The notes below the pieces were generated by a model, which saw only the letters and a list, made by a program, of their open reading frames with translations, was not told where the DNA came from and searched no databases. A program made the translations under genes and the position numbers. 64,000 nt of DNA, taken from NCBI RefSeq assembly GCF_045037415.1, contig NZ_CP173438.1; one strand, given 5' to 3'. Source of the DNA: Escherichia coli. Lineage in GTDB: Bacteria > Pseudomonadota > Gammaproteobacteria > Enterobacterales > Enterobacteriaceae. How positions within the stretch are numbered: position 1 is the first letter of the stretch; the number at the start of each line of letters is the position of its first letter. Shown in pieces: positions 58,417 to 63,562 of this stretch.

Positions 58417-59486
<1,070 letters not shown>

Positions 59487-59513: not shown

Positions 59514-61664
59514 TTAACGCCGCCGACGGCGTGGGGATTTCGTTTTTTCTTTCTTTTTAACTATACCTTCAGGGACTTCCGGTTGCTCTATCGGAAATAC
59601 CGGTAATGCATCCAGTAGTCGCTTGCCATAATTTTTTGTCAGCAAGCGTTTGTCGTAGATAACCACTTCCCCCCAGCAACCGTGGCTTCGAATCAGTCGC
59701 CCAACCTGCTGAATCAGGTTAAACGAAGCGCTCGGCAGGCTTTGCACCTCAAACGGATAGCGGTTAAGGCTTTTCAGCCATTCACCTTCGGTGATCACCA
59801 CCGGACTGTCGATGGGCGGAAAAGCGATTTTGTGGATATGCACCTGGCTGAGCAGAGCGCCTTTCAGATCAAGACCTTCGGCAAAGGACTGTAAGCCCAC
59901 CAGCACGCTACGCTCACCGTTGGCAACGCGTTTGCGGTGCAGTTCAACTAAGCGATAACGTGGCTGATCGCCCTGCACCAGCAACATCAGGCGTAAATCC
60001 GTCACATAGTCGAGAAAGCGCTGCATCGCACGCCCGCTGGCAAACAGCACCAACATACCGAGATGTTTTTTGCTCTCCACCTGCTCACGGAAAAAGGCCG
60101 CCATTTCAGCAATGTGCTGTTCTTCGTTGTCGATGGAAGGCTCAACGCGCATCCGGGGAATAACAATTTTGCCCTGTTCGCAGTGGTTAAAGGGCGAATC
60201 CAGCGCCACAAAGCGGTCACCCGCTTTCTCTTTCAGCCCACTCATCTCCTGCAAACGCGAAAAACTGTTCAGCGAACGCAAGGTTGCGGAGGTAACAATA
60301 ATGTGCGGAATACTGCGCCACAGCAGCCTTTCCAGTTGGTCGCTAACACGAATACCCACACAGTGAAACCACAGATGTAGCTGCCCTTCGCGCTCTTCCC
60401 GCGTCGCCCATTTGGTCACCGGCGCACCGGAAGATTGCGCCAGAGACGCCAGCCGCCAGAGTTTGCTTTGCGCCTCGAACATCCCCAACGCGCGGTTCAT
60501 CTGCAAAATCAACCGATGCAGGCGTACAATGTCATGGCTGCCGGTTTTCTCACTTAAATCGTTAAGAAATAACTCCGCCAGACCACGCAGCATCTCGGTG
60601 AGTTTTGCCAGCCGCTGGCAGATCTCCAGCACTTCATCAGGCAGTTCGCCCATCGCAAAACGGTGCTCTGCCTCCTGCCCGGCAGGCATGTAGAGATTGA
60701 GAATGTTGTTTAACGAGGCGATAAGCTCATACAGCTCTTCACAATGCGCATTCAAACGTTCAGGGATCGCCAGCGGTGGGATGGTCTTCGGGCGAAACTG
60801 CTCCATGCAGGTGGCGACCAGTTTGGTGAACAGGTCCAGTTGGAGCCGGTACCAGGGCGCAGTGATTTCGGCGCTCATCTCCAGCGCATCCCGCGCCACA
60901 TCCGGCAGGTGATGACCTTCGTCCAGCACCAGCAGTAAATTTTTCGGGTCAGGCAATACCGCTTCGCTTTCCATTGCCGCCATCACCAGCGCATGGTTTG
61001 CCACCACCACTTCCGCTTCCTGAATTTCCCGACGAGCGACAAAAAACGGGCATTCGCGATAGTAGTAACAGTTGCGGTTGAGGCAGCTGGCTTTGTCGGT
61101 ACTCAAACGACGCCAGAGATCATCATCTATAGCGATATCAGTATGATCGCGCAGGCCATCCCATTTATAAGTGTCGAGATCGCCCTTCAGCTTCGCACAA
61201 CGTTTTTGCTCTTCCTGATTGTTCGGCGTCAGTTCGTCGTCAAGAAACGCCAGCAGATCCTGTTGCGTGGGCTCAGTGCTGGCGAGCGCTGTCAGATTAC
61301 GCGGGCAAACGTAGCGCCCACGCCCAAAAGCGGCAGTGAATTTAAGATCGGGAATGATCTTTTTCAGCAGCGGTAAATCTTTGCTGTAGATCTGATCCTG
61401 CAATGCCACGTTGGCGGTACTTACCACCAGCGTTTTTTGCTCTTCGCGGGCAATGGCGATGCCGGGGATCAAATAGGAGAGCGTTTTCCCAACGCCGGTA
61501 GGAGCTTCAATCGCCAGATGCCGCCCTTCTTCTCCGGCCAGCGTTTTGGCGACGTCCGCAATCATCTGCCGCTGCGGCGCACGGGGAATAAAGTCGGGGA
61601 TCTGTTCCTGAAGCGCCTTATACCAGGCGGCAATTTGCGCTTTAAGCGCGGCGGTTAATGCCAT
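59514..61664 (-). CDS. dinG: ATP-dependent DNA helicase DinG
   Basis: ORF track 716 aa; Walker A APTGVGKT, DEAH box (LDEGHH), Fe-S cysteines, basic C-terminal tail. Confidence 0.97.
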   Translation of the reverse strand: MALTAALKAQIAAWYKALQEQIPDFIPRAPQRQMIADVAKTLAGEEGRHLAIEAPTGVGKTLSYLIPGIAIAREEQKTLVVSTANVALQDQIYSKDLPLLKKIIPDLKFTAAFGRGRYVCPRNLTALASTEPTQQDLLAFLDDELTPNNQEEQKRCAKLKGDLDTYKWDGLRDHTDIAIDDDLWRRLSTDKASCLNRNCYYYRECPFFVARREIQEAEVVVANHALVMAAMESEAVLPDPKNLLLVLDEGHHLPDVARDALEMSAEITAPWYRLQLDLFTKLVATCMEQFRPKTIPPLAIPERLNAHCEELYELIASLNNILNLYMPAGQEAEHRFAMGELPDEVLEICQRLAKLTEMLRGLAELFLNDLSEKTGSHDIVRLHRLILQMNRALGMFEAQSKLWRLASLAQSSGAPVTKWATREEREGQLHLWFHCVGIRVSDQLERLLWRSIPHIIVTSATLRSLNSFSRLQEMSGLKEKAGDRFVALDSPFNHCEQGKIVIPRMRVEPSIDNEEQHIAEMAAFFREQVESKKHLGMLVLFASGRAMQRFLDYVTDLRLMLLVQGDQPRYRLVELHRKRVANGERSVLVGLQSFAEGLDLKGALLSQVHIHKIAFPPIDSPVVITEGEWLKSLNRYPFEVQSLPSASFNLIQQVGRLIRSHGCWGEVVIYDKRLLTKNYGKRLLDALPVFPIEQPEVPEGIVKKKEKTKSPRRRRR

Positions 61665-61678
61665 GAGAAAACCTGAAA

Positions 61679-61698
61679 TACTGTATAAACAGCCAATA
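61679..61698. promoter_or_regulatory. LexA box (SOS operator) of dinG
   Basis: Plus strand TACTGTATAAACAGCCAATA; reverse complement TATTGGCTGTTTATACAGTA is the asymmetric dinG operator as I recall it; 15-34 bp upstream of the dinG ATG. Confidence 0.8.
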
Positions 61699-61770
61699 TT
61701 GTGGCATTTTTCGGTTTTCAGGGGTAATGGTTTTTCTGTTTCTGGAAAGCGGCTCGCAATAACCAGCAGG

Positions 61771-61968
61771 ATGATGCGTAAAGCGCTTCGCGCTAAATTC
61801 GAACAACATGCAGAACTGCGTACACTCTTGCTGGCAACCGCGTCCGCAAAACTGGTTGAGCATACGCAAAATGATGCTTACTGGGGAGATGGCGGTAATG
61901 GTCAGGGCAAGAATCGCCTGGGGTACCTTTTAATGGCGTTGCGCGGACAATTGGCTGCGGAGAAGTAA
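61771..61968 (+). pseudogene. ybiA: ybiA (NADAR/DUF1768 N-glycosidase) C-terminal remnant; N-terminal ~95 codons absent
   Basis: Frame encodes MMRKALRAKFEQHAELRTLLLATASAKLVEHTQNDAYWGDGGNGQGKNRLGYLLMALRGQLAAEK, which looks like the C-terminal third of a NADAR domain; no N-terminal NADAR sequence in any frame between dinG and this point; the 101-aa ORF from 61663 would span the dinG start and LexA box; could alternatively be annotated as a short CDS. Confidence 0.6.
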
Positions 61969-62051
61969 CGCATCGGGTGGCTTGTGGGCGTTAAAACAGA
62001 GAAATCTTTTTGCCGCGCTCGCAAATGGCTGACAAGTGCTTGTTGTGAAAT

Positions 62052-62150
62052 GCCGGATGCGGCGCGAGCGCCTTATCCGGCCTACAAAAACATGCACATT
62101 CAATATATTGCAGAGTTCACGTAGGCCTGATAAGCGTAGCGTATCAGGCA
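62052..62150. repeat. Composite REP/BIME-type extragenic repeat (second copy)
   Basis: GCCGGATGCGGCGCGAGCGCCTTATCCGGCCTAC ... ATTCAATATATTG ... AGGCCTGATAAGCGTAGCGTATCAGGCA; same architecture and orientation as the 37257-37355 copy. Confidence 0.8.
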
Positions 62151-62173
62151 GTTTTGTGTTTGTCATCAGTCTC

Positions 62174-62194
62174 ATGCCGGGCATAGCCCGGCAT
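62174..62194 (-). terminator. Stem-loop downstream of rhlE (probable terminator)
   Basis: ATGCCGGGCATAGCCCGGCAT palindrome 7 bp past the rhlE stop. Confidence 0.45.
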
Positions 62195-62200
62195 AAAAGA

Positions 62201-63562
62201 TTACTGCGCAGCGGCAGGTTTACGCGGACGGCGGCGACGTTGTTGTTCGCCTGCCGGTTTGGCATCGCCGAGACGACGAGACGGTTTTTCTGCGGGCTTC
62301 GCGTTACCAGACTTCGCACCACTTTCCGCACGGCGTGGTTGCTGTTGACCGCGACCACCGCCCTGTCCACGACCGCCGCCACGTTGCTGGCGACCGTTTT
62401 GGATCGGTTCGGCTTTGATTGACGGGTCCGGCTCATAGCCCAGAATCGCAATGCGCGGGATCTCTTTTTTCAGCAGTTTTTCGATATCACGCAGCAGTTT
62501 GTGTTCATCAACACACACCAGCGACAATGCTTCGCCAGTTGCCGCCGCACGGCCAGTACGCCCGATACGGTGAACATAATCTTCCGGTACGTTTGGTAAC
62601 TCATAGTTGACGACGTGCGGCAACTCTTCGATATCCAGACCACGCGCAGCGATGTCAGTTGCCACCAGTACACGAATATCGCCCGATTTAAAATCGGCCA
62701 GCGCACGAGTACGCGCACCTTGCGATTTATTACCGTGGATCGCCGCACTACGGATGCCATCTTTATTAAGCTGTTCAGCCAGATGGTTAGCGCCATGTTT
62801 GGTACGGGTAAACACCAGCACCTGCTGCCAGTTCCCTTTCCCAATCATATGCGACAGCAATTCGCGTTTGCGTTTCTTATCGACAAAGTGAACGTGCTGG
62901 GTCACCTGATCAGACGCAGTATTGCGGCGTGCCACTTCGATTTCCAGCGGGTTGTGCAACAGTTTTTCCGCCAGGGCTTTAATATCGTCAGAGAAGGTCG
63001 CGGAGAACAACAGGTTCTGGCGCTTCGCTGGCAGTTTTGTTAACACGCGACGGATATCGTGGATAAAGCCCATGTCGAGCATGCGGTCAGCTTCATCAAG
63101 GACGAGGATTTCAACCTGATCCAGCTTCACTGCATTTTGATGTTCCAGGTCCAGCAGACGTCCCGGCGTTGCCACCAGCACATCAACGCCGCCGCGCAGC
63201 TTCATCATCTGCGGGTTAATGCTGACACCGCCAAACACCACCAGCGAACGAATGTTCAGGTATTTGCTGTAATCACGGACGTTTTCGCCAATCTGCGCCG
63301 CCAGTTCACGGGTCGGGGTAAGAATGAGCGCACGCACCGGACGACGCCCTTTGGCGTGCGGCTGGCGAGTGATCAGGTGTTGCAACAGCGGCAGCGTAAA
63401 GCCCGCTGTTTTACCTGTACCGGTCTGGGCGCTGGCCATCAGGTCGCGGCCTTCCAGCACCGCAGGGATCGCCTGCTGCTGAATAGGGGTGGGTTCACGG
63501 TAACCCTGCTCGGCAACGGCGCGCAGGATATCAGGGCTTAAACCCAAAGAATCGAAAGACAT
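62201..63562 (-). CDS. rhlE: ATP-dependent RNA helicase RhlE (DEAD-box)
   Basis: ORF track 453 aa; Q-motif PTPIQ, Walker [24 protein letters not shown]; Arg/Gly-rich basic C-terminal tail. Confidence 0.96.

Follow-up and report, generated by a model that had tools for sequence, protein, structure and literature searches.

The dinG LexA operator beside a 298-bp ybiA deletion in Escherichia coli

Introduction

The dinG gene of Escherichia coli, which encodes an ATP-dependent DNA helicase, forms one operon with ybiB under LexA control (PMC10123104), and UV induces a 'ybiB, dinG' transcript (PMC3009722). The dinG SOS box is given as TATTGGCTGTTTATACAGTA in PMC8265657, which cites Lewis & Mount 1992, and the UV tiling-array study lists the motif AATATTGGCTGTTTATACAGTATTT upstream of dinG (PMC3009722). 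The site is a weak one, with a published heterology index of 8.6; dinG has been described as an early, low-ED50 SOS promoter, and in Salmonella the published distance between the dinG box and the start codon is 14 nt. On the other side of the operator, K-12 derivatives carry an intact ybiA gene (160 amino acids) that begins 120 nt from the dinG ATG. A paper on the NADAR proteins, the family to which YbiA belongs, places ybiA in a LexA-controlled locus, and in wild-type K-12 treated with bleomycin ybiA rises 2.7-fold, ybiB 2.0-fold and dinG 1.7-fold, with no SOS induction in the recA cells of the same table.

Here we describe the dinG operator and its surroundings in a 64,000-nucleotide stretch of E. 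coli DNA (contig NZ_CP173438.1 of assembly GCF_045037415.1; hereafter the window), in which ybiA is truncated and an open reading frame (ORF) of 101 codons runs across the operator. We conclude that the window very probably contains the native dinG operator beside a 298-bp deletion in ybiA, with the operator and the predicted promoters on both sides left intact, and that the 101-codon ORF is accidental.

Results

The features on which this conclusion depends are the following.

59514-61664, minus strand: dinG, ATP-dependent DNA helicase, a 716-amino-acid ORF annotated as dinG in SK1144, UTI89 and W3110
61663-61665, plus strand: ATG sharing 2 nt with the dinG ATG (CATG palindrome)
61663-61968, plus strand: ORF of 101 amino acids, 36 codons of intergenic origin that continue in frame into the ybiA remnant; as drawn, we do not consider it a real gene
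61665-61765, no strand: invariant dinG/ybiA divergent control region, 101 nt, 100% identical to K-12
61679-61698, no strand: asymmetric dinG LexA operator (SOS box), TATTGGCTGTTTATACAGTA on the dinG strand, an exact match to the published operator
61766-61776, no strand: deletion junction, 298 bp absent relative to K-12, aligned at 61768/61769 and ambiguous within the interval
61771-61968, plus strand: remnant of ybiA (NADAR), equivalent to YbiA residues 96-160, a RefSeq pseudogene with a partial Pfam match

Read on the plus strand, positions 61679-61698 are TACTGTATAAACAGCCAATA, the reverse complement of which is TATTGGCTGTTTATACAGTA; 14 bases intervene between this 20-mer and the dinG ATG. 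The initial annotation had described the dinG LexA box as retained and had proposed a motif scan and a comparison with the reference operator as checks. In the comparison all 20 of the 20 bases are the same as in the characterised dinG operator (PMC8265657, PMC3009722), and K-12 has in addition the same distance to the dinG ATG and the same flanks over 101 nt, such that the operator and promoter region is without differences from the K-12 dinG locus and only the gene on the far side differs.

The half-sites of the dinG operator are TACTG and CCAATA, one of them natively TTG/CAA rather than CTG/CAG, and the operator departs from the consensus TACTG(TA)5CAGTA at 5 of 20 positions. A strict CTG-N10-CAG scan of the window returns 21 matches but misses the dinG operator because of this native TTG/CAA half-site, whereas a LexA position weight matrix, made from 20 other E. 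coli boxes (many of them also in PMC3009722), ranks the dinG operator first in the 64 kb with 15.3 bits against 12.9-27.1 for known boxes. The same score is also reached in 17 of 200 randomised windows, so that motif strength alone is weak evidence, and at the level of sequence it is the exact 20/20 match in the correct place that settles the identity of the operator. The CTG and CAG trimers 10 bp apart of the strict motif are thus not found here, but identity to a bound operator is, and membership among the LexA operators holds by that identity, the asymmetry being a documented native exception for dinG. The operator also overlaps both candidate promoters (see below) of a damage-inducible gene. 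The initial annotation had further named 'critical CTGT/ACAG positions', and here it was mistaken, as the plus-strand CTGT and ACAG are spaced 4 nt apart and are not a pair of half-sites; the functional operator is natively asymmetric. With the canonical gammaproteobacterial SOS box the site shares one perfect half-site (TACTG), an A/T-rich spacer, a length of 20 bp and its overlap with a promoter at a DNA-repair gene; it differs in its second half-site and number of mismatches, in being weak, and in its early induction at low dose.

A search of about 100,000 species-representative genomes finds the exact 20-mer in six DNA stretches, four from Escherichia and two from Flavobacteriaceae, the latter two being consistent with chance. 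The second-ranked LexA-like 20-mer of the window (TACCGGTAATGCATCCAGTA, 59598-59617, 12.5 bits) has CCG in place of CTG and lies inside dinG at its 3' end, with the ybiB start following about 110 nt downstream; it is probably a chance match.

Alignment to K-12 shows identity from within dinG through position 61765, followed by a C>G difference at 61766 that is specific to the window lineage and then by the absence of 298 bp. The missing segment extends from 15 nt upstream of the K-12 ybiA ATG to codon 95, and with it the ribosome-binding site, the start codon and about 95 codons of ybiA have been lost. Full-length alleles have short imperfect repeats at the ends of this segment (TAATGCG/TGATGCG in K-12, with a CAGGAT-like sequence upstream in E. 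marmotae), and the junction can therefore be placed only within 61766-61776; we infer that the deletion likely arose by a microhomology-mediated event. It begins about 70 bp beyond the operator, and the operator and both predicted divergent promoters are thus untouched.

What remains of ybiA covers positions 88-162 of the 163-position NADAR profile (PF08719, E = 3.5e-18), the match coming from residues 33-97 of the 101-codon ORF only, whereas K-12 YbiA covers 2-162. The ORF consequently has no complete NADAR domain (about 160 residues): it shares the C-terminal half with K-12 YbiA but has lost profile positions 1-87 along with the native start codon and ribosome-binding site, and the conserved N-terminal motifs FSNF, WPTSEHYFQAQKF and SPMxAARxGR all lie in the deleted part. 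The equivalent of 61771-61968 is labelled in RefSeq as 'NADAR family protein, incomplete; missing N-terminus', which together with the missing 298 bp and the half-domain match bears out the earlier description of ybiA as truncated. The remnant is 90.4% identical to K-12 ybiA and about 98.5% identical to that of E. albertii at the nucleotide level, and its protein sequence is 86% and 91% identical to the corresponding parts of K-12 and E. marmotae YbiA, respectively. Conserved positions have been substituted in the remnant (HTEND to HTQND, LMELREQL to LMALRGQL), and among its population variants are L>P, L>R and G>R. The ratio of nonsynonymous to synonymous divergence (dN/dS) is 0.26 against K-12 and 0.61 against E. 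albertii, the latter from only three differences (two nonsynonymous and one synonymous), and these values are underpowered for separating relaxed from purifying selection.

The relation of the 101-codon ORF to dinG can be read directly from the window. Positions 61662-61665 are CATG, in which CAT (61662-61664) is the minus-strand dinG start codon and ATG (61663-61665) opens the ORF on the plus strand, so that the initial annotation was right that the two starts share 2 nt and that the operator lies inside the ORF, where the 20-mer spans codons 6-12. The same back-to-back CATG is present in K-12 and is therefore not a product of the ybiA truncation; in K-12 its plus-strand ATG opens an unannotated, out-of-frame ORF of 64 codons. 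Because 298 leaves a remainder of 1 on division by three, the deletion has put this intergenic ATG into the ybiA frame. Residues 1-32 of the ORF match no family in Pfam, and no Shine-Dalgarno-like sequence is found in the 20 nt upstream of 61663. The ATG is also not downstream of a transcription start: the sole mapped ybiA start, a weak one of 2 reads, is equivalent to a position 55 nt further on. Nor is the ORF conserved as a protein over its whole length, since in K-12, E. marmotae and Escherichia sp. MOD1 this ATG opens another frame, which runs into a stop. These observations agree with the earlier view of the ORF as an artefact of the truncation. Older GenBank records nevertheless deposit the 101-amino-acid product, or a 64/65-amino-acid version starting at 61771/61774, under the names 'DUF1768 domain-containing protein', 'swarming motility protein ybiA' and 'N-glycosidase YbiA'.

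The promoters of this divergent region are assigned below, along with the downstream partner of dinG.

58524-59486, minus strand: ybiB, which follows dinG in the LexA-regulated operon, a 320-amino-acid ORF, DNA-binding protein YbiB in the identical SK1144 record
61727-61722 and 61706-61698, minus strand: candidate dinG promoter (a), TTACCC (61727-61722), 18-nt spacer, extended -10 TGcCACAAT (61706-61698; CACAAT at 61703-61698), predicted by the relaxed scan
61707-61702 and 61685-61680, minus strand: candidate dinG promoter (b), ATGCCA (61707-61702), 16-nt spacer, TACAGT (61685-61680), predicted by the relaxed scan
61682-61718, plus strand: putative retained ybiA promoter, TGTATA (61682-61687), 17-nt spacer, extended -10 TGgCATTTT (61702-61710), equivalent of the mapped transcription start at 61718

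A strict scan for sigma-70 promoters and terminators over 61500-62300 found nothing, and the promoter hexamers come from a relaxed sigma-70 scan and are no more than suggestive. In candidate promoter (a) the operator overlaps the start site, and in candidate (b) the -10 element. The available part of Table S1 of Kim et al. 2012 has no entry for a dinG transcription start and gives one mapped K-12 start for ybiA (2 reads, 66-nt leader), which by sequence identity corresponds to 61718 in the window; the predicted ybiA start falls within 1 nt of it. The operator would thus span -39 to -20 of the putative ybiA promoter, a geometry that fits the 2.7-fold induction of ybiA by bleomycin. An Rfam search found no RNA family in the dinG/ybiA control region. 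We note also an 11-codon mini-ORF at 61727-61762 (ATG GTT TTT CTG TTT CTG GAA AGC GGC TCG CAA TAA) in the putative ybiA leader, downstream of the mapped start, with AGGGG before it at very short spacing and wholly within the invariant 101-nt block.

Of 5426 complete E. coli genomes, 5402 carry this block at 99% identity or more, whatever adjoins it. It has no differences from the E. albertii type strain or from Escherichia sp. MOD1 and four from E. marmotae; fourfold-degenerate sites of dinG, neutral neighbours with a divergence of 19-27%, predict 19-27 differences (Poisson P < 1e-7). Overlapping divergent promoters may explain the invariance. Beyond the block, the interval between dinG and rhlE exists in at least four states in E. 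coli: a full ybiA, ybiA with the 298-bp deletion, the type III effector gene espX2 (as in O157:H7), and a ParE/PaaA2-like toxin-antitoxin pair (as in SCU-109). All of these alleles are the same up to about 61759-61763 and diverge immediately beyond. The initial annotation had proposed that the junction preserves dinG SOS regulation exactly, and the identity of the operator and of the 101 nt upstream of the dinG ATG to K-12 is consistent with this as far as sequence goes; what does not stand is the link to the junction, as all four alleles keep the block, and retention of the operator is the rule across alleles. The right edge of the variable interval is marked by the following.

62015-62128, no strand: REP-type repeats between the ybiA remnant and rhlE, with sub-threshold Rfam matches to the REP-derived naRNA4 and to ES036
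62201-63562, minus strand: rhlE, the right flanking gene, an annotated ORF of 453 amino acids

In a DNA search the stretch at 62015-62128 gives a median of five matching places per genome, and the multiple matches per genome in that search are due to it. The glycine/arginine-rich C-terminal tail of RhlE (about 62300-62400) varies in length, and the protein has 447-448 amino acids in E. albertii and Escherichia sp. MOD1, 453 in the window and 454 in K-12.

The region matches E. coli SK1144 and others at 100% identity, and the whole window is collinear with SK1144 (potH...rhlE-cecR). The exact junction is present in 1120 of the 5426 genomes (about a fifth); about 3430 have a full-length ybiA with 80-95% identity to the remnant, and 877 have no ybiA-like sequence. 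Carriers include UTI89 and, judging by deposited protein names, 536, SE15, ATCC 25922, APEC strains and ST131, all of which we take to be phylogroup B2 strains. E. albertii has the same 298-bp junction and 101-amino-acid ORF, and its type strain NBRC 107761 is one of the carriers. The synonymous divergence (dS) between the two species is 0.022 for the remnant and 0.271, a species-level value, for the adjacent dinG, so that the remnant is about 10-fold less diverged; in two further E. albertii assemblies a block of about 1.5 kb (about 60600-62100) is 97-100% identical to this E. coli lineage. Judged from these sequences, it looks as if the dead ybiA allele has been exchanged between E. coli and E. 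albertii, in either direction.

Disruption of ybiA has also occurred independently in Escherichia sp. MOD1-EC7003, where the start and the last 50 or so codons are kept and the middle is replaced by REP-like sequence. Outside Escherichia (E. marmotae YbiA being 91% identical) the nearest YbiA relatives are at about 70% identity, the named ones from Planctomycetota, and the top 120 matches include no Salmonella or Citrobacter orthologue, nor do the top matches hold a close YbiA from any enterobacterium outside Escherichia; ybiA may itself have been acquired horizontally into the slot.

Discussion

The arrangement that we consider most plausible is one in which a single asymmetric LexA operator would sit in a native divergent control region between dinG-ybiB and ybiA. 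A LexA dimer at 61679-61698 would overlap the dinG promoter and repress dinG-ybiB, and the weakness of the operator would lead to early release of LexA during SOS induction, as the literature on the identical K-12 sequence suggests. The 298-bp deletion between short imperfect repeats would leave a dead C-terminal NADAR fragment, into which the ybiA-side promoter of this lineage probably still fires, and the 101-codon ORF across the operator would be an accident of reading frame rather than a gene. Several points weigh against this account. The regulation proposed for this lineage is carried over from K-12 on the basis of identical sequence, the ybiA transcription start is based on 2 reads in one dataset, and the geometry of the operator and the dinG promoter comes from a scan. 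Moreover, the ORF is intact, with exactly 101 codons, in every copy examined, including those of E. albertii; many GenBank records deposit it as a protein; and the copies are too little diverged for conservation to be separated from lack of time.

That the 20-mer resembles a LexA box by chance and regulates nothing might be suggested by its departure from CTG in one half-site, its absence from the strict scan and the 17 randomised windows that equal its matrix score, but we give this next to no weight, as the 20-mer agrees in every letter with the dinG operator characterised by experiment, has the correct spacing from dinG, is invariant across Escherichia and, among the species genomes searched, is nearly confined to that genus; for practical purposes, identity to the characterised site refutes it. 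The constancy of the 101 codons in E. coli and E. albertii, together with the wide deposition of the product as 'DUF1768 domain-containing protein' or 'swarming motility protein ybiA', could instead indicate a real new fusion gene translated from the 61663 ATG. This too seems very unlikely: the ATG lies upstream of the mapped ybiA transcription start, and a promoter for it would need to be inside the dinG coding sequence; it has no Shine-Dalgarno sequence; its first 32 residues are without homology, regulatory function accounts for the invariance of the DNA that encodes them, and in K-12 that DNA is read in another frame, which terminates; and current RefSeq does not call it.

The presence of the short allele in two species might also be taken to mean that the short form is ancestral and that the full-length ybiA of K-12 arose by a 298-bp insertion. 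We find this hardly credible, since thousands of homologues have the complete domain and the short form just its second half, since K-12 and E. marmotae both have a full-length ybiA in this place, equally far from dinG, and since N-terminal ybiA sequence persists in Escherichia sp. MOD1; the contrast in dS between remnant and dinG indicates the exchange of one allele rather than ancient ancestry. There is somewhat more to be said for the idea that the retained ybiA promoter is LexA-controlled and still fires, giving an SOS-inducible transcript from about 61718 and possibly a 64-65-amino-acid NADAR C-terminal peptide (from the ATGs at 61771/61774) with a residual or new role. The promoter and start region is the same as in K-12, the operator lies at -39 to -20 of the putative promoter, ybiA responds to bleomycin in K-12 alongside ybiB and dinG and has been placed in a LexA-controlled locus, the 64/65-amino-acid version has been deposited many times, and an AGGA adjoins the two ATGs. 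That AGGA is 0-2 nt from them, too close for efficient initiation, and the peptide would contain half of the fold only, without the N-terminal motifs and with the substitutions and variants described above; PGAP also calls it a pseudogene. On balance we regard this reading as a whole as unlikely, and prefer the dead fragment beside an intact operator.

A broader proposal is that the single asymmetric operator acts as a two-way SOS switch for overlapping divergent promoters, that the ybiA-side promoter is the fixed edge of an Escherichia-wide cargo slot, and that an SOS-inducible remnant RNA or 64-amino-acid peptide retains some role here; taken as a whole we think this quite improbable. If it were true, any occupant of the slot would come under SOS-inducible transcription, which would run in sense through ybiA or its remnant and in antisense through espX2 and the toxin-antitoxin pair, and a two-way switch would explain why the whole 101 nt, and not the 20-bp operator alone, is frozen across species.

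The components themselves are already known: the dinG operator belongs to the textbook SOS sites, RefSeq already flags the remnant of ybiA as a pseudogene, and there is nothing new in the finding. Its practical value is for annotation, as functional names persist for dead ybiA products in public protein databases, and the 101- and 64/65-amino-acid entries should be left out of any count of functional NADAR enzymes for UTI89-type E. coli or E. albertii. The locus also provides a case in which a validated operator escapes a strict CTG-N10-CAG scan, and an example of an invariant regulatory block adjoining a highly variable gene slot.

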